Source: Candidatus Parcubacteria bacterium (lineage in GTDB: Bacteria > Patescibacteriota > Minisyncoccia > Phycocordibacterales > PALSA-1337). From it: a DNA stretch of 64,000 nucleotides. Made by a program: the position numbers and the translations under genes. The stretch covers positions 8,454 through 72,453 of the forward strand of contig JBDLTF010000004.1 of assembly GCA_039799225.1 (NCBI GenBank), read 5' to 3'. Shown here one piece after another: positions 4,891-23,087 of this stretch. The notes beneath the pieces are model-generated. The model had not been told where the DNA came from. It ran no database searches and was given only the letters and a program-made list of their open reading frames with translations. Positions within the stretch are counted from its first letter, which is position 1; every line of letters begins with the position of its first letter.

Positions 4891-4975
4891 GCCGGGATGG
4901 CGGAATTGGTAGACGCACACGACTCAAAATCGTGCGGAGTAATCCATGGGAGTTCGATTCTCCCTCCCGGCACCA
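4891..4975 (+). tRNA. tRNA-Leu(CAA): tRNA-Leu(CAA), type II, CCA encoded
   Basis: Cloverleaf folded by hand: acceptor gccggga/tcccggc, anticodon loop cuCAAaa, long variable arm, T-arm gggag-ttcgatt-ctccc, discriminator A, CCA. Confidence 0.9.
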
Positions 4976-5136
4976 CAAAACAATAAGACTATCCGGAACT
5001 CAATGCCGGGAAGTGAGTCGCCTGCGCGACTCACGTGGGAGAATCGAAAAGGTTGAGCATATTTTCGAAGAGCTCTGCTCTGAGAAAATGCGAAACCTGT
5101 ACAGGTCCTGTAGGGACCGATTCCCTCCCGGCACCA
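4976..5136 (+). ncRNA. conserved tRNA-Leu 3'-trailer structured element, copy 1 (unclassified)
   Basis: About 160 nt directly after the tRNA. Hairpin 5013..5034 (gtgagtcgc-ctgc-gcgactcac) and hairpin 5062..5088. Conserved blocks CGAAAAGGYTGAGCAT and GCGAARCC. Ends with a second copy of the tRNA T-arm and acceptor 3' strand (cgattccctcccggcacca). A homolog with compensatory stem changes lies at 22508..22663. Confidence 0.4.
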
Positions 5137-5199
5137 CAAAACGAAATATAAAAAAGGACCGCCAAAGCGATCCTGTGAAAGGTTACGAGAATTCGAGCA

Positions 5200-7242: not shown

Positions 7243-7935
7243 TCATTCATCGACGAGCTCAGCCAGTCTCTCCCTGATCTCCGATGCTTTCCATTGGCCA
7301 GACACAACTTTGCCACTAAGAAAGCCATAGACAAGCGTCGTCTTGGCAGAACCGAAGAGAAGGCGGGATACCTTTCCATATGCTGGACCCATCGCCATAG
7401 CGGCAACTGGAATGCCATATCGAGCCTCGAGGCTACCAGCACAGGTGATGAACTGTCCGAGCTCCGCCAAGGTATCGGGGAAAAAAGCCACCTTGAATAT
7501 GTCACCCCTTTGCACAGTGCACGCGACCGCCGCATTGCACACATCGAGAGGATCGAACGGGCTTTCGAATACGTGTAAGGAGATGATAAGTCCGACACCT
7601 TGCTTCTTCGCCTTGTCGATAACTTGTTTCATCTGGATAGCCGTTGATGCCTCGACATCAATGAGTGTAGCGAGGTCCAAGTAACGCAGGTAGAGCGCGA
7701 TACGCTTTCGCGGATCGAGAGGGGCATTACCCCTTTCTCCCGCACAACGGACAGTGATGATGAGCGGCCGCTCCAGTTTTTTGAGCAAGCGCTTGTTAGG
7801 GGCATACTTGTCTGCCCGGAGTTCGAAGAGGTCGATACTCCCGGGATGGTCGACGGCTAGCCACAGGTCATCTTCCGACGCTATGACGCCCACGACATTG
7901 GTTCTGCCGAGGATTTTCTTGAGTTTTGTTTTCAT
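7243..7935 (-). CDS. aroD: type I 3-dehydroquinate dehydratase
   Basis: Alignable blocks with AroD from memory: PLIITVR vs PLLFTFR, ISLH-F-SP vs SNHDFHKTP, FKVAF-P vs IPKIALMP, PVAAMAMGPAYGKVSRLL...FGSA vs PIITMSMAKTGVISRL..FGSA. Confidence 0.7.
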   Translation of the reverse strand: MKTKLKKILGRTNVVGVIASEDDLWLAVDHPGSIDLFELRADKYAPNKRLLKKLERPLIITVRCAGERGNAPLDPRKRIALYLRYLDLATLIDVEASTAIQMKQVIDKAKKQGVGLIISLHVFESPFDPLDVCNAAVACTVQRGDIFKVAFFPDTLAELGQFITCAGSLEARYGIPVAAMAMGPAYGKVSRLLFGSAKTTLVYGFLSGKVVSGQWKASEIRERLAELVDE

Positions 7936-8002
7936 AGGTTCACTCCAATCTGAACCTATCCAACCATAAATATAAAAAGGTGTAAAGCACTTGTTTGCAA
8001 AT

Positions 8003-8040
8003 AAAAAAGGCGACTCATATGAGCCGCCTTGAAACTAACA
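8003..8040 (-). terminator. hairpin + U-run terminator downstream of 8045..8389
   Basis: aaggcg-ctcatatgag-cgcctt structure. T6 follows on the minus strand. Confidence 0.45.
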
Positions 8041-8044
8041 AAAC

Positions 8045-8389
8045 CTACTTCCCTTTGTCGAACTGCATGTGACTCGGCGGAAGAGCCGGTGGTTCACATG
8101 TGCGTCTGAACGTGATTTTCCTGACACCATTGATCTTCGCCGGAGATTCATCAGCCTTAACCCAGATATGTTGCTGGGCCATAAACCGATAGAATAACCT
8201 CCGAGAAAGCGGTGCGCCGAAGGTTTTGAGCATCCTACGGAGATCTTCCCCTTCAACAGCCTTACCGTTCAGAAGCGTCGGCAACAACCGACGAGCTTTT
8301 TCGAGATTGTGAGCTACCAAGACGACTCTGGCGATGACTATGAGAGCCCCGATAACTGCTGCCACTAAGATGATTTTCATGTAGTCCAT
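8045..8389 (-). CDS. small single-pass membrane protein, paralog 1 of 3
   Basis: N-terminal TM helix followed by an ~85-aa basic cytoplasmic domain. Shared pattern with the next two genes (L..K, G..E.LR..LK..G..LS...FY..M, C-terminal RR cluster). Confidence 0.5.
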   Translation of the reverse strand: MDYMKIILVAAVIGALIVIARVVLVAHNLEKARRLLPTLLNGKAVEGEDLRRMLKTFGAPLSRRLFYRFMAQQHIWVKADESPAKINGVRKITFRRTCEPPALPPSHMQFDKGK

Positions 8390-8424
8390 AACCTAAACCT
8401 ACCTTTCTTTTGAGAGAACCTGTG

Positions 8425-8763
8425 TTATCCGACCGATCTATCTGACAATTTCCGCCGGCGGTACCGCATGAAGAATCCAACCTCGCCAGTAGAATCATCA
8501 TCTACTTCTTCACTGATGATGTATGTCTTCAAACTCTTGGCGACTGCGCGCAGGAGACGTGGACCAACGCTAATGTCCCGCTTCCTCAGGTTAATGATGA
8601 TCTCATGCTCGCTGGAGAATTCGTCTTTCATCAATCCTGGCAGAGCTTCGCGTACTTTACTGCTCAAGTGCTGTCTACGAATGATGTAGATCAGACACGC
8701 TGCGACTACCGCCGATACGATGTATATCATGGTGTTCCTTTTGGTTGTGTTGTACTTTTGCAA
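8425..8763 (-). CDS. small single-pass membrane protein, paralog 2 of 3
   Basis: Same architecture as 8045..8389 and 8887..9210. Confidence 0.5.
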   Translation of the reverse strand: MQKYNTTKRNTMIYIVSAVVAACLIYIIRRQHLSSKVREALPGLMKDEFSSEHEIIINLRKRDISVGPRLLRAVAKSLKTYIISEEVDDDSTGEVGFFMRYRRRKLSDRSVG

Positions 8764-11535: not shown

Positions 11536-12585
11536 TTAACCCTTGCCGCCGGTGTAATAGAACTGCGGCTGGCCGAACTTGGTCCAGTTGAATTTCACGA
11601 TACGGTACTCGCCGGCCGGGAATTTCATTTCCGTAGGCTTGGTCGTATCGAGATCGACCGTAAGCACCCTACCCTGCGTGATGAGTTCGATTTCCATCGA
11701 GTATGGGCGCTCGAGATACGGCTTACCATCCTGAACGAGCCCGAGCACATCAATGGTCATATCCTGCTTGCCGACAAGGTTCAGATAGGCCGTCGGAAGT
11801 GCGTAGGTCTCCAGAATCTTGAGCGTAGCGGATCCCGCTGAAGCAGTCGTGAGCTGATAGTGCCCATCGACCGAATAGTTGTCCATCTCATAGGTAGAGG
11901 TTGCCGGCTTTGCGACCGGGTCGCTCACTTTGTAGGTGACAACTTTGCCATCGGTATATTTGACCCACACGATCATGTTGGTATACCGAGACAACCATTC
12001 AGGCCAGAACAACTGACCGTCCCTGACCTGCACGTAGACAGCATCTGCGGTTTGTCCGTCCTCATTGAGAACGAGCACATTCGCTTCGCTGACGTCACTG
12101 AGAATGGGGATTTCCCACATCCAAAGATTGACGTGGATACCATTGGTAGGAGTGATGTTCTTGGCGATGGCATTACCATTGCCATAGAACAACAGATTCC
12201 AGTTCGTATCGTACAGATACGCGTATGAATCGACGCGGTCGTCTTGATTCTTTATCCAATAGCTAAACGGCACGGCGAAGAGTTTCTTGAGGATATCTTC
12301 ACCTGATGTACCATTCGTGTCCGTCGAGTTCACAGTTCCCTTGCGACTCCAATCCATACTGGGGGAATATGTGTACCGCCCGCCGTAGGCCGCGATCTTG
12401 AGCGCATAACTGCGCAAGAGATCAGGGCTCTGAATTTGAGGCAAACTAGTCGGGTGATCTGCAGCGATGGCCGTGAATGAGAGAAGCGCCGCCAGGATGG
12501 CGAGCGCGAACAGGTTCTTCAGTTTCATAGTTTCTTTCGTTTCTGTATTTCCGTATTGTTTTCGTTGTTTTTTGTTTGCTACCAA
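11536..12585 (-). CDS. secreted hypothetical protein (signal peptide)
   Basis: Likely start at the internal MKLKNLFALAILAALLSFTAIAA (around 12525). Trp/Tyr-rich beta-type sequence. Confidence 0.5.
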   Translation of the reverse strand: MVANKKQRKQYGNTETKETMKLKNLFALAILAALLSFTAIAADHPTSLPQIQSPDLLRSYALKIAAYGGRYTYSPSMDWSRKGTVNSTDTNGTSGEDILKKLFAVPFSYWIKNQDDRVDSYAYLYDTNWNLLFYGNGNAIAKNITPTNGIHVNLWMWEIPILSDVSEANVLVLNEDGQTADAVYVQVRDGQLFWPEWLSRYTNMIVWVKYTDGKVVTYKVSDPVAKPATSTYEMDNYSVDGHYQLTTASAGSATLKILETYALPTAYLNLVGKQDMTIDVLGLVQDGKPYLERPYSMEIELITQGRVLTVDLDTTKPTEMKFPAGEYRIVKFNWTKFGQPQFYYTGGKG

Positions 12586-20037: not shown

Positions 20038-20757
20038 CTACCACCCCTTAGCCTCCAACGCCTTCTCTGCTGCTTGCTGCTCTGCTTCCTGCTTGGACAT
20101 ACCCGTTCCTGCTGCGACTTGAACATCCCTAAGGAATACACCGAGAGTGAATTTCTTGTCATGATCAGGACCAACTTCTTTGAGTGTCTTATAGGTCGGC
20201 GTGATACCCATCTTCTCCTGTGCCTTCTCCTGGAAGCGACTCTTGGCATCGATCCAGAGCTTATCTTTCACAATGATATCGATGTCGATGTAATTCAAGA
20301 TCTGATCTGAAATGAACTGCGCAGCTGCATGATATCCCTGATCCATATAGATGGCACCGATGAGAGCCTCGACTGCATTTGCGAGAATGACCGAACGGGC
20401 ACGACCAGTATCTTTGGCCTCACCCTTCGAGAGGAGCATGAATTCATTGAGACCAATATGTTCAGCGACCTTCGTGAGACTGACGGTGTTCACGATAGCT
20501 GAACGATATGCGGTGAGCTCACCTTCTGCCTTGTGCGGATATTTCAAGAAGAGGAATCCGGTGACCGCCAACTCCAAAACAGCGTCTCCGAGAAATTCGA
20601 GGCGCTCATTGTGTTCCATGCCAGTACCCTTGTTCTCATTGAGGTACGAGCGATGTGTACATGCTGCACGGAGCAAGTTTACATCGTTGAATGAAACGCT
20701 GATCTTTTTCGAGAGTTTTTCGAGATTCTGTTGCATGTTACTTCTCCTCACTAACAA
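20038..20757 (-). CDS. rnc: ribonuclease III
   Basis: RNase III signature ERLEFLGDAVLE and a C-terminal dsRBD. The likely start is the internal Met near 20736, adjacent to the stop of the upstream gene. Confidence 0.9.
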   Translation of the reverse strand: MLVRRSNMQQNLEKLSKKISVSFNDVNLLRAACTHRSYLNENKGTGMEHNERLEFLGDAVLELAVTGFLFLKYPHKAEGELTAYRSAIVNTVSLTKVAEHIGLNEFMLLSKGEAKDTGRARSVILANAVEALIGAIYMDQGYHAAAQFISDQILNYIDIDIIVKDKLWIDAKSRFQEKAQEKMGITPTYKTLKEVGPDHDKKFTLGVFLRDVQVAAGTGMSKQEAEQQAAEKALEAKGW

Positions 20758-21643
20758 TCGTCACTGCTTTGGTAACTATCGGGAGGATATCATTATAGAA
20801 ATTGAGTTCGAGAATGTCGGCGAGCTTGAACCACTTAGCATCATCAAGTCCTGGCTTCTTCGCAAGAGCGAGGTCAGTAAACTTCGACTCTGCGAGATAG
20901 TAGTGAACCTGTTTCCTGATCTTACCAATCTCAGGATCGTTGGCAATATATTCATTCTGACCGAGGTCTTCCTTAATCTTCACATCGAGACCGATTTCTT
21001 CTTTGACTTTGGCGACGGTGCCATCCTTTGGATCCATATCCTGAGGGATTTTTCCCTTGGAAAGGGTCCAGTGGCCGAAAATGTCGTGCACGAAGGCAAA
21101 GAAGATATCAGACTCATGGCGCGCATATACGATGGCGCCTCCGAGATGCTGGACAGGCATCTGTTCATACGGGACCTCGGCAGGTTTCTTCTTCTTGGGA
21201 GCCTGTGGAGCGTCCTTACCTGGCTCACCAAGCTCCTTGTAGACCGCACCGAGCACACCGTTTACGAACCTACCCGATGTTTCGCCGCCGAATGTCTTGG
21301 CGAGCTCGATAGCTTCGTTGATAGCAACCTTGGCAGGAACCTCATCACGGTCAGAGAAGATGAGTTCGAAGAGACCGAGGCGGAGAACATTACGATCAAC
21401 CGGAGAAATCTTCTCGAGTGGCCAGTCAGGAGCGGCCTTGGTGATGATATCGTTGAGATCCTGCTTCTTGGCGATAATACCCTTCAAAAGGGCTTCTATG
21501 AATGAGACATCAGTCACACCTGGAGCAAATTCCTTGGCATTACGAGTAACAATGGCGGAAACGTTTTCGTCATGCTGTCCACGAGCATCCCACTCGAAGA
21601 GTGATTGGAGAACTACAGACCTTGAGAGGTGTCTATTTGCCAT
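20738..21643 (-). CDS. nusB: transcription antitermination factor NusB fused to a C-terminal Nudix-like domain
   Basis: NusB blocks (LQSLFEWD, NVLRLGLFEL, AINEAIELAKTFGGETSGRFVNGVLG). A Lys/Pro linker leads to a Nudix-fold-like region whose Nudix box (GKIPQDMDPKDGTVAKVKEEIGL) is only partly conserved. Confidence 0.7.
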   Translation of the reverse strand: MANRHLSRSVVLQSLFEWDARGQHDENVSAIVTRNAKEFAPGVTDVSFIEALLKGIIAKKQDLNDIITKAAPDWPLEKISPVDRNVLRLGLFELIFSDRDEVPAKVAINEAIELAKTFGGETSGRFVNGVLGAVYKELGEPGKDAPQAPKKKKPAEVPYEQMPVQHLGGAIVYARHESDIFFAFVHDIFGHWTLSKGKIPQDMDPKDGTVAKVKEEIGLDVKIKEDLGQNEYIANDPEIGKIRKQVHYYLAESKFTDLALAKKPGLDDAKWFKLADILELNFYNDILPIVTKAVTIVSEEK

Positions 21644-21967: not shown

Positions 21968-22179
21968 GGGAAGTAGTATTGCATATTATTTTATTTTTCG
22001 CAAGAAGTGGGTCTTTTTGAGCACCCTAAATCAAACATAGTTTGCCAATTACGAGAAAATACGGTAGATTGTTCTGTACGTGGTTTGTTCTGATAGTGCG
22101 CCCATATCTTCGCTTTGCTCGATATAGGCGCTGCGCTCGGACGAACCGCGAATGCAAGCATTCACGATCGTCCTCACTT

Positions 22180-22252
22180 GCGCCCATAGCTCAGCTGGTA
22201 GAGCAGATCCCTCTTAAGGATAAGGTCGTAGGTTCGATCCCTACTGGGCGCA
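22180..22252 (+). tRNA. tRNA-Lys(CTT): tRNA-Lys(CTT)
   Basis: Acceptor gcgccca/tgggcgc, D-arm gctc-agctggta-gagc, anticodon loop cuCUUaa, T-arm gtagg-ttcgatc-cctac. No CCA encoded. Confidence 0.85.
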
Positions 22253-22279
22253 CAAATCGAGGGCTCGCAGATTTGTGCG
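22249..22279 (+). other. 10-bp inverted repeat hairpin overlapping the tRNA-Lys 3' terminus
   Basis: cgcacaaatc-gagggctcgca-gatttgtgcg. The 5' arm includes the last 4 nt of the tRNA. Confidence 0.5.
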
Positions 22280-22425
22280 AGCCGCAGGCCTGACGAGGCC
22301 GAGCGGGCGACCAGCAGGTCGTGCCGGCGGAGGCTTCGCGAGATTTTCTAGCAAGAAAATACTCGTGACCACAAATCAAAATAAAGTCGCGTAGAAATAT
22401 GTTAGGCTAGTAGATACGATTTCCC

Positions 22426-22507
22426 GCCGGGGTGGCGAAATTGGTAGACGCACGTGGCTTAGGACCACGCGGAGCAATCCTTGGAGGTTCGAGTCCTCTC
22501 CCCGGCA
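22426..22507 (+). tRNA. tRNA-Leu(TAG): tRNA-Leu(TAG), type II
   Basis: Acceptor gccgggg/ccccggc, anticodon loop cuUAGga, long variable arm, T-arm ggagg-ttcgagt-cctct. No CCA encoded. Confidence 0.85.
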
Positions 22508-22663
22508 CAAACGAACGAAGTGAGTTTTGTGTTGGGAGCAAAGCGCCTGCGCGCTTTGCGAGAGAGGACTCGAAAAGGCTGAGCATGTTTTCTCGGAGCA
22601 AGCTCCGAGAAAACGCGAAGCCTATACCGCGCCTGTAAGGCGAGAGTCCTCTCCCCGGCCACA
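22508..22663 (+). ncRNA. conserved tRNA-Leu 3'-trailer structured element, copy 2 (unclassified)
   Basis: Homolog of 4976..5136. Hairpin 22537..22558 (gcaaagcgc-ctgc-gcgctttgc) and hairpin 22587..22612 (ttttctcggagc-aa-gctccgagaaaa). Same conserved blocks. Ends with a copy of this tRNA's own 3' end (gagtcctctccccggc). Confidence 0.4.
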
Positions 22664-22676
22664 CTAATATCCACAC

Positions 22677-23087
22677 TTGACACGGACATCTTTCCGTGCT
22701 ATTTTTGTGTTTGGAAAACCTGTTCTTACTATTACTATGATACTGATGCCCACTGAAACCAATCGGACTCCTGTCGTTTCACCTGCAGCTCCCCAAAAAA
22801 TCAGAGGCCACATCTTGGTCCTGATCGCCGGAGAATCGACCCGTGAAGTTGTTCGGATCGGACTCGAAAGGGTTGGATATACGGTAACCGCCCTCAGTTG
22901 CCCCGTGAAGGCGCTCTGCAAGTTTGCAAGCGACCCTTTCATCAAGCAGATTATCGTCTGCGAACAGATCGCCTGCGATGACGGTAGCGACCTCATGCGC
23001 CGGGCAAACAAACTCGGTAAGCAGGTTGTCCCGTTCACCTACGGAAACAGTGTCGACCCGACTGACATCCTTAGTTTGACCTCATAA
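22677..23087 (+). CDS. single-domain CheY-like receiver protein lacking the phospho-acceptor Asp (pseudo-receiver)
   Basis: Likely start at MILMPTE (around 22737). Receiver-like pattern HILVLIAGE ... IIVCEQIACDDGSDL with the acidic pocket degenerate. Confidence 0.35.
   Translation: MTRTSFRAIFVFGKPVLTITMILMPTETNRTPVVSPAAPQKIRGHILVLIAGESTREVVRIGLERVGYTVTALSCPVKALCKFASDPFIKQIIVCEQIACDDGSDLMRRANKLGKQVVPFTYGNSVDPTDILSLTS

Follow-up and report, generated by a model that had tools for sequence, protein, structure and literature searches.

Integron cassettes are arrayed at a fixed docking site, carry a short direct repeat at their boundaries, and in some cases contain promoterless open reading frames (ORFs). 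At integron attC sites and at the folded attP of CTX phage, inverted copies pair within a single strand, with extrahelical bases on one side. RNAs such as mascRNA from MALAT1 and 3'ETS-leuZ are released by the enzymes that process transfer RNA (tRNA), or from tRNA trailers. In Dehalococcoides, islands at ssrA are inserted mid-T-loop, are marked by a 20-base-pair (bp) direct repeat, form tandem arrays, and contain a conserved motif that abuts the repeat (McMurdie et al. 2011, PMC3146451). In Patescibacteria, tRNA group I introns are spliced, mostly contain no endonuclease gene, and are located in the anticodon loop, at 35/36 and at the canonical site (Nakagawa et al. 2026, PMC13011429). Here, we describe a structured non-coding cassette located behind tRNA genes, two copies of which are present in a 64,000-nucleotide (nt) stretch of a Candidatus Parcubacteria contig (JBDLTF010000004.1; the window): copy 1 follows tRNA-Leu(CAA) and copy 2 follows tRNA-Leu(TAG). 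No description of this cassette was found in the literature searched, the nearest precedent being the Dehalococcoides ssrA islands.

The cassette contains the 3' end of the preceding gene twice, once inverted and once direct, together with a conserved, covarying junction; it recurs behind many tRNA genes, forms repeat-bounded arrays, and is present behind some but not other copies of an identical tRNA. The reading that we favour, tentatively and at a little less than an even chance, is that it is a miniature, ORF-less, non-autonomous integrative cassette, which uses the T-loop/3'-end segment as its site and carries a structured RNA domain read through from the tRNA promoter.

A cassette framed by copies of the tRNA 3' end

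Copies of the cassette (family X; Y, Z, and W denote other cores, and L-numbers such as L001 are labels of compared loci) were searched for with a sequence pattern in genomes, one per species, and with a stricter pattern in metagenomes. The genome scan returned at least 45 true copies in at least 41 loci, the other matches listed being chance matches in coding DNA, while the stricter pattern returned 47 metagenome loci. Among the matches listed, the metagenome-assembled genomes that contain copies were labelled Saccharibacteria, Paceibacterota, Taylorbacteria, Parcubacteria, or 'Patescibacteria group', or were unlabelled. No cassette was revealed by a pattern scan of viral contigs or by a blastn search of phages and plasmids. 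After removal of duplicates, 64 copies remained, and in 49 of them an annotated gene was located on the same strand, no more than 260 nt upstream. These genes represent 25 tRNA species (the tRNAs are those for Gly, Ala, Ser, Leu, Tyr, Arg, Val, Lys, His, Trp, Cys, Ile, and Glu) and transfer-messenger RNA (tmRNA). Without exception among the copies, the cassette has the orientation of the upstream tRNA or tmRNA gene; many tRNAs in cassette-bearing genomes have no cassette behind them. An earlier note on this DNA, prepared from the sequence of the window, had described a tRNA-Leu trailer element. Since the same cassette follows 25 tRNA species and tmRNA, this designation is not tenable.

The cassette is ca. 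135-150 nt long and consists, in this order, of a linker, a segment b', a hairpin (HP1), a segment a', a three-way-junction core, and a terminal direct repeat. The repeat corresponds to the last ca. 17-21 nt of the upstream gene, from mid-T-loop to the discriminator or 1-3 nt beyond it, and at times extends to 37 nt, into the trailer. Segment a' is the reverse complement of the T-loop and the T-stem 3' strand, and b' is that of the acceptor; together, they therefore constitute an inverted tRNA 3' end split by HP1. Family-wide, b' is the Watson-Crick complement of the acceptor 3' strand. That both segments complement the 3' strand, and are not copies of the 5' strand, is seen behind tRNA-Ala and tmRNA, where G3.U70 becomes A3-U70. 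The match of both the direct and the inverted copy to the target holds gene by gene across the family.

In copy 2 (22509-22660), the direct repeat contains a 16-mer, GAGTCCTCTCCCCGGC, that is present at 22491-22506, within tRNA-Leu(TAG), and at 22644-22659, with no third occurrence in the 64-kb window and 0.01 repeats expected by chance. The earlier note had already recognized that the T-arm and the acceptor 3' strand of this tRNA are duplicated; its downstream coordinates were correct, and its upstream ones (22492-22507) are off by one. The statement that copy 2 encodes no CCA was also accurate. The 5' acceptor heptamer, reported there as missing, is indeed absent in its exact form, but a degenerate version, the b' segment GTTGGGA at 22531-22537, still pairs: as a degenerate complement of CCCCGGC it forms six of seven pairs, two of which are G-U, and its possible partners are 22654-22659 (helix P0) and tRNA-Leu(TAG)'s own 22501-22506. 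The TTTTGTG stretch on the 5' side of b' pairs with the tRNA trailer, and a' is complementary to TCGAGTCCTCTC of tRNA-Leu(TAG) at 12 of 12 positions and to the downstream repeat at 10 of 12. The linker type of copy 2 was found again in many other copies. In copy 1, b' is identical to the 5' acceptor strand of tRNA-Leu(CAA), and CCA follows the repeat. The 135-nt cassette contains no ORF; minus-strand ORFs overlapping 22407-22689 cross the tRNA and were judged spurious.

A search of the whole window against Rfam 15 at the gathering threshold returned tRNAs only, and a search of region 22100-22760 at E <= 10 returned two tRNAs and otherwise only chance-level matches. ARAGORN and the Rfam tRNA model detected no tRNA at 22509-22663 or 5005-5136, where cloverleaf arms are absent; the tRNA parts found inside cassette copies are limited to the 3' strands of the T stem and the acceptor stem. 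A decaying partial tRNA duplicate (pseudogene) or a chance repeat, devoid of function and mobility, could account for a duplicated tRNA 3' end and for the degenerate state of some duplicates. Yet the core is conserved, with compensatory changes, in at least 86 distinct copies associated with 25 tRNA species and tmRNA, the Rfam tRNA model does not match the cassette, and the number of repeats expected by chance is the 0.01 given above. This explanation is thus already contradicted, and we regard it as barely credible. An aminoacylatable tRNA mimic (of the tmRNA or viral TLS kind), or a copy of the tRNA 5' strand, was also considered and rejected: A3 lies opposite U70 behind tRNA-Ala and tmRNA, P0 often runs over the discriminator and the trailer, and copy 2 has no CCA. 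Replacement of G3.U70 by A3-U70 leaves no basis for aminoacylation mimicry.

In two loci of identical sequence, L116 (11100-11230) and L159, a cassette is located behind an unannotated tRNA-like 3' end, GGTCGTAGGTTCGAATCCTACCCGCGGAGC, which was not called by ARAGORN and may belong to an intron-containing tRNA.

Fold, covariation, and transcription context

The 23-nt core TCGAAAAGGYTGAGCATRTTTTC starts at 5044 and 22570 and is found nowhere else in the window. A covariance model scores each of the two copies at 118 bits (E about 1e-29), with no third match in the window. Both copies share the same fold, composed of an outer stem, P0, followed by HP1, P1, and a three-way junction with P2/HP2 and HP3, and their fold z-scores are -6.8 and -6.2. 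The view of the earlier note that a conserved structured element is present a second time is thus borne out. Its two covarying hairpins proved to be an undercount: covariation is real, but involves five helices (HP1, P1, P2, HP2, and HP3). In a structure-blind MAFFT alignment of 39 sequences, 87% of cells pair, compared to 30-45% with slid partners, with many double changes in HP1, P1, HP2, and HP3, and UA/CG covariation in P2. P0 pairs in just 60% of cells of this alignment and is missing in a sizeable minority of copies. In an alignment of 86 distinct sequences to the model, which is fitted to the structure and hence biased towards it, 94% of cells pair versus 29-43% with slid partners. In the same alignment, double changes affect 653 cells versus 180 in shuffles, GC/CG exchanges are seen in P2 too, and HP1 pairs in 98% of cells, with changes on both sides in nine out of nine pairs. 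Thus, the compensatory changes postulated earlier are statistically supported. The P2 sequence of a more distant copy, arranged in tandem in L155, is ACCC/GGGU instead of AGGY/RCCU, so this helix is retained despite the sequence change.

Approximately 35 junction and loop nucleotides are invariant, an invariance that is partly imposed by the search pattern. They include a tandem G.A beside G-C/C-G, an AU bulge, GCGAA, GUAC, and the HP3 loop UGUAA. P0 often runs over the discriminator into the trailer, and the T-loop is paired away. G-U pairs and A-C mismatches each amount to about 2%; since G-U is no commoner than A-C, wobble statistics are uninformative about which strand, or which nucleic acid (RNA or DNA), folds.

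Several known RNA classes were considered. A hammerhead was rejected by eye (CUGAGCA versus CUGAUGA, with the essential G8 missing), as was a kink-turn for the GAGC/GCGA motif, where no 3-nt bulge is found beside the G.A pairs. Small self-cleaving ribozymes (hammerhead, twister, pistol, hatchet, and HDV-like) gave no Rfam match at E <= 10, and in region 22100-22760 there was no Intron_gpI match and no other Rfam intron or ribozyme match.

A mini-hairpin of the form C-GA-NN-GNA-NN-GA-G, with a tandem G.A two bp below a GAA or GTA triloop, recurs in the family. Examples are ACGAACGAAGTGAGT and GGAGCGAAGCGAG, and the sites include window positions 22511-22525, HP2 tips, and linkers (e.g., in L043 and L109). 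This pattern is also that of the GAGC...GCGA motif in the core.

tRNA-Lys, tRNA-Leu, and the cassette lie between a promoter-like site, at 22042, and the first good terminator, at 22681. Because copy 2 has no terminator in front of it, has one behind it, and lies downstream of this promoter-like site, transcription from the tRNA promoter probably continues into the cassette in the window. In the window, neither copy is separated from its tRNA by a terminator; in the family, 16-19 of 47 copies (about 40%) have a canonical terminator hairpin with a T run in the stretch that separates the cassette from its tRNA. A hairpin behind copy 1, at 5155-5174 on the minus strand, scores as the terminator of a converging minus-strand gene and not as one of the tRNA-Leu(CAA)/cassette unit, which leaves copy 1 without an obvious terminator of its own. 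Based on the same promoter-like site and terminator, it is plausible that the spacer at 22253-22425 belongs to the predicted transcript of tRNA-Leu and the cassette. The first hairpin of the spacer (22254-22425) pairs the 3' end of tRNA-Lys, GCACAAATC, with GATTTGTGC, and a partial repeat, CCACAAATC, closes the spacer, which may represent a different cassette family. This assignment is uncertain; the similarity of the spacer to Y-type (Y/Z) cassettes and to the L036 tRNA-Lys trailer is weak. A 301-amino-acid (aa) protein encoded at 20738-21643 of the window (minus strand) contains a NusB domain and a weak NUDIX match; its gene adjoins the genes for RNase III and SMC, a combination in keeping with the window being of patescibacterial origin.

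The fold and its context are also what would be expected of a host small-RNA family residing in tRNA operons. According to such a scheme, P0 and P1 would mimic the acceptor/T-stem stack, RNase P and 3' enzymes would excise a stable RNA of ca. 130 nt, the junction would bind a protein or a tRNA, and the repeats would serve RNA folding and processing rather than insertion. The strong covariation of five helices and the ca. 35 invariant nucleotides are consistent with this, as are the RNA-like motifs (tandem G.A, triloops, and the pentaloop UGUAA), the constant position directly 3' of a tRNA or tmRNA in the same orientation, and a repeat that stops at the discriminator. The identity of copy-1 b' to the tRNA 5' acceptor strand, the CCA behind the repeat, and the position of the window terminator after rather than before the cassette point in the same direction. 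However, a canonical terminator intervenes between tRNA and cassette in the 16-19 of 47 copies mentioned above, P0 is paired in 60% of cells and missing in many copies, and where it is formed it often continues past the discriminator into the trailer, with the T-loop paired away. Segments b' and a' complement the 3' strand, so that A3-U70 replaces G3.U70 and aminoacylation mimicry is lost, and G-U is no commoner than A-C. The patchy distribution, the decayed downstream repeats, and the gene cassettes found between the same repeats do not fit a host RNA, and this scheme gives no account of why the adjacent tRNA has to be copied in the frame. We therefore consider a host small RNA unlikely, though worth keeping in view.

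A second RNA-level explanation is a cis antisense switch. In read-through transcripts, b' and a' would pair with the 3' half of the tRNA itself (acceptor 3' strand, T-stem, and trailer), over up to 29 bp, and the downstream repeat would act as a decoy that releases the tRNA; 3' maturation of the precursor, termination, or degradation would thereby be controlled. Indeed, the linker and b' pair with the trailer and the 3' end of the tRNA in long hairpins (of 13 bp in L109 and of 25-29 perfect bp in L034, L036, and L066), a' fits the real tRNA better than it fits the repeat, and in L034, L109, and L112 the upstream pairing is kept although the downstream acceptor repeat is not there. But a simple switch needs no conserved three-way junction, the cassettes of L146 and L148, kilobases from the tRNA, keep the fold with a local repeat, the cassette is absent at many tRNAs of the same genomes, and invasion of a folded tRNA would be kinetically unlikely. 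Such a switch is, in our view, very improbable.

Arrays, empty sites, and proposed insertion at tRNA 3' ends

Tandem X-X arrays are present in L001, L098/L122, and L155, and arrays of either tandem or mixed type in L001, L108, L036, L155, L146, and L162. The same repeats also bracket genes. In L162, the order is tRNA-Ser, X, repeat, HIT gene, and repeat, the protein-coding cassette, for a HIT-family protein, being located at 11765-12118. In L146, tRNA-Glu is followed by Y, a repeat, a segment composed of a SAM methyltransferase gene, ORF173, and a terminator (protein-coding cassette, 7281-8663), X, and a repeat; the second cargo protein of this locus is 173 aa long and of unknown family. Cassettes of L146 and L148 are separated from the tRNA by kilobases of cargo and have the same fold with a local repeat. 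Cassettes Y, Z, and W have unrelated structured cores, but their frame is the same, with the 3' end of the neighbouring tRNA present once inverted and, at the terminus, once direct. Taken together, the inverted copy, the repeat-bracketed gene cassettes and arrays, and the intervening terminators, three features that the earlier note had not recognized, make a role in trailer function or processing less likely than an origin by insertion.

An identical tRNA-Leu(TAG) gene is followed by a cassette in the window, L121, and L150, and is not in L060, L123, and L153, where unrelated sequence follows it; the latter loci represent different lineages, not strains. The cassettes behind this tRNA in the window, L121, and L150 differ in all variable stems. 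The frame of the L121 cassette does not match its tRNA-Leu(TAG) (CCACTAG/CTAGGAC), and is also found behind tRNA-Tyr (in L141, from the same metagenome, and in L088) and tRNA-Ser (L042). This 'wrong' a', CTAGG, is thus present at three different tRNAs (L121, L088/L141, and L042). Identity of the variable stems is 0.74 within a genome and 0.65 between cassettes at the same tRNA in different genomes (n=33), against a background of 0.61, the within-genome value being based on just seven pairs. In L135, the downstream repeat is unlike the local tRNA-Val and equals the cassette's own a', which indicates that the module composed of a', core, and repeat can move as a unit.

Downstream repeats have decayed by indels in window copy 1, L026, and L036; in L034, L109, and L112, their acceptor part has been lost. 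In cases in which the 3'-end copies differ, the inverted copy agrees with the tRNA 16 times and with the repeat four times (Wilcoxon p 0.002; T-loop TCGA excluded). Such a bias is expected if the inverted and the upstream copies arrived with the inserted DNA and the displaced copy drifts.

Large serine recombinases of ca. 520-560 aa (Resolvase, Recombinase, and Zn ribbon) are in every case encoded convergently with a tRNA gene, with an antisense overlap of the tRNA 3' end (Table 1). These loci show that, in Patescibacteria, the 3' ends of tRNA genes actively serve as insertion sites. There are more than 6000 homologues, many of them on ~2-kb contigs; source names, seen for a few homologues only, are Paceibacteria, Magasanikbacteria, and Taylorbacteria. 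Upstream of the recombinase gene, ca. 210 nt are conserved between loci. In L024, the recombinase gene is flanked by 117-nt inverted repeats, 100% complementary, that start in the last 4 nt of tRNA-Gly, and in L171 no distal repeat was found within 10 kb. An attempt to ascribe the cassette repeats to this enzyme was therefore unsuccessful: with its own inverted repeats and its insertion at the very end of the tRNA in L024, and no distal repeat in L171, the large serine recombinase cannot be credited with them.

Based on these observations, we suggest that site-specific recombination inside the T-loop/3'-end segment would insert the cassette; the cassette's own copy of the segment would complete the tRNA, and the resident copy would be displaced and become the downstream repeat. 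The window cassette would now be fixed within the tRNA-Lys/tRNA-Leu transcription unit. In the transcript, a' and b' would pair with the repeat (P1 and P0) and so close the conserved junction into a compact RNA domain. Consistent with a T-loop-targeting integrative element, 49 copies have a direct repeat that begins in the T-loop and an intact target gene, and both occupied and empty sites, located in different lineages, and tandem arrays are found. The span of the repeat, from T-loop to discriminator, is the classic one for att repeats of islands that target tRNA and tmRNA genes. An element-encoded integrase beside attL was not found in the cassette.

Several observations weigh against integration. 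No recombinase is linked to the cassette in the loci examined, and the sole recombinase family nearby, which may be unrelated, inserts at the very end of the tRNA without a long direct repeat. No excised circle or strain-level empty site was observed, the empty sites being those of other lineages; in exact-protein look-ups of window neighbours, made to find strain-level empty sites, two proteins had no record, and for one the contig ends before the locus. A double-stranded circle of 135 bp is unlikely to serve as a substrate for recombination. The ca. 35 nucleotides shared without change by Saccharibacteria and Paceibacteria, with their RNA-like motifs (tandem G.A and GNA triloops), look more like a functional RNA than like a selfish remnant. 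The insertion model also does not account for the need for an inverted target copy split by HP1. In candidate roles, the inverted copy and the junction may provide a cargo RNA with its closing stem, guide the choice of target, or re-create the target by folding of a single strand.

The last two roles underlie a further explanation, in which the cassette is a folded single-strand recombination site or a guide. In single-stranded DNA, or in RNA, segments a' and b' and the 3'-end copy would re-create the target duplex, HP1 would be a bulge that marks the strand, and the junction would offer a platform for proteins; in a variant, a'/b' would be a guide that selects the tRNA gene, and tRNA and tmRNA 3' ends would serve as attI for cassette arrays. 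The topology is analogous to that of attC, with b'/b outside, a'/a inside, an extrahelical element on one side, and a variable or apical part; arrays have common repeat boundaries, and in the L146 cassette the structured element is preceded by ORFs. Complementarity of the inverted copy is strictly Watson-Crick (A3 faces U70), a' follows the functional target, and G-U is no commoner than A-C. GCGAAGC-type GNA mini-hairpins, which are unusually stable in DNA, recur. On the other hand, the cassette has no linked enzyme of the IntI-like, Xer-like, or HUH type; IntI was not seen in the loci examined, and no systematic search for it was made. The invariant nucleotides are not at the presumed crossover but in the distal junction, the motifs (tandem G.A and bulge) are RNA-typical and strand-specific, single-stranded intermediates are hypothetical, and HP1, at 22 nt, is far larger than the extrahelical bases of attC. 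We consider a folded site or guide distinctly unlikely. The corresponding wider proposal, a Patescibacteria system of non-coding or gene-carrying cassettes that docks at tRNA and tmRNA 3' ends through a self-folding module (an attC-like duplex or a programmable guide) and is integron-like or guide-directed, with no known enzyme, is to our mind no less doubtful; it would extend over dozens of tRNA species in a phylum whose genomes are minimal.

The family is large, supported by covariation, absent from Rfam, and, among the matches listed, apparently restricted to Patescibacteria, a phylum in which mobile elements and non-coding RNAs have scarcely been charted. If the favoured reading, miniature integration, is correct, these would be the smallest site-specific tRNA-targeting insertions known, and they would show gene and RNA arrays accreting behind tRNA genes in streamlined genomes. 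If the fold were a recombination site or guide, it would point to a new recombination mechanism, and if the cassette were a host RNA, it would be a small RNA associated with tRNA and tmRNA loci throughout the phylum. Partial tRNA repeats from cassettes can mislead the annotation of tRNAs and of island boundaries in such genomes.

Table 1. Features of the two window copies and of the compared loci (window coordinates unless a locus label is given).
Feature	Position	Strand	Basis or remark
tRNA-Leu(CAA), CCA encoded	4891..4975	+	ARAGORN, Rfam
Copy 1 of the cassette	5005..5136	+	
Copy 1, b' GCCGGGA	5005-5011	+	
Copy 1, HP1	5013-5034	+	
Copy 1, a'	5037-5047	+	
Copy 1, core	5044-5102	+	
Copy 1, HP3	5103-5119	+	
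Copy 1, direct repeat	5118-5136	+	2-nt deletion relative to tRNA; CCA and trailer included
Promoter-like site TTGCCA-17-TAGATT	22042..22070	+	Consensus scan; upstream of tRNA-Lys
tRNA-Lys(CTT)	22180..22253	+	ARAGORN; Rfam tRNA, 68.5 bits
GC-rich spacer with many hairpins	22254..22425	+	Fold z-score -4.9; between tRNA-Lys and tRNA-Leu
tRNA-Leu(TAG)	22426..22507/8	+	ARAGORN, Rfam
Copied part of tRNA-Leu(TAG), ~17 nt	22491-22507	+	T-loop 3' part, T-stem and acceptor 3' strands, discriminator
Copy 2, linker: mini-hairpin ACGAACGAAGTGAGT (tandem G.A and GAA triloop), anti-trailer TTTTGTG	22509..22530	+	Sequence
Copy 2, b' GTTGGGA, degenerate inverted copy of acceptor 3' strand	22531..22537	+	Fold
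Copy 2, HP1, 9-bp hairpin, loop CTGC	22538..22559	+	Fold; covariation
Copy 2, a' GAGAGGACTCGA, inverted T-stem 3' strand and T-loop; 5' strand of P1	22562..22573	+	
Copy 2, conserved core: P2 (AGGCU/AGCCU), tandem G.A, G-C/C-G, AU bulge, HP2, GCGAA, junction (A/G)UAC	22574..22627	+	
Copy 2, HP3, conserved loop UGUAA	22628..22644	+	Fold; covariation
Copy 2, direct repeat of tRNA-Leu(TAG) 3' end (GAGTCCTCTCCCCGGC and C); 3' strands of P1 and P0	22644..22660	+	
Terminator-like hairpin and T run, 3' of cassette	22681-22698/22708	+	
Large serine recombinase loci	L024:301-2153; L140:1791-3386; L164:4001-5554; L165-L172		At tRNA-Gly, tRNA-Val, tRNA-Arg, and tRNA-Glu, respectively
Y/Z/W non-coding cassettes	L108:936-1110; L146:7059-7228; L036:2967-3142; L024:2400-2545; L036:4840-5021		L036:4840-5021 on minus strand

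Comparison with known systems

Like the tRNA group I introns (PMC13011429), the cassette is a structured non-coding insertion associated with tRNA in the same phylum; unlike them, it is located outside a complete tRNA and is much smaller. With miniature inverted-repeat transposable elements it shares a small size, the absence of ORFs, multiple copies, structure, and a patchy distribution. It differs from them in having no terminal inverted repeats, in a flank that is a 17-37-nt gene end rather than a 2-10-bp duplication, and in its strict site and orientation.

mascRNA and 3'ETS-leuZ are comparable in that the cassette belongs to a tRNA transcription unit, 3' of the tRNA, and its terminal helices resemble an acceptor/T-stem stack. 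In contrast to these RNAs, it has no T-loop, D, or anticodon arms, its helix often extends past the discriminator, many copies have a terminator between tRNA and cassette, and there is no sequence relation.

Compared to attC and CTX attP, the likeness, which is structural only, consists in the b'/b and a'/a pairing and in HP1 on one strand. As in integrons, cassettes are arrayed at a fixed site with shared boundary repeats, and some have promoterless ORFs upstream of the structured element. Unlike attC, the cassette has no GTTRRRY/RYYYAAC core and no link to IntI or Xer, and its boundaries are tRNA 3' ends; while attC is conserved in structure only, the apical part of the cassette is highly conserved in sequence.

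The Dehalococcoides ssrA islands differ from the cassette in scale and content: it is ca. 135-150 nt long, with no ORF or integrase and no recombinase tied to it, and it has a covarying phylum-wide junction core, an inverted target split by HP1, and versions for at least 25 tRNA species. A general likeness to tRNA-targeting islands is provided by the large serine recombinases convergent with tRNA 3' ends in the same phylum. With the ssrA islands in particular (PMC3146451), the cassette shares tRNA and tmRNA targets that are left intact, the same sublocation within them, a repeat of ca. 20 bp, tandem arrays, a conserved sequence directly upstream of the repeat, and cargo genes between repeats.

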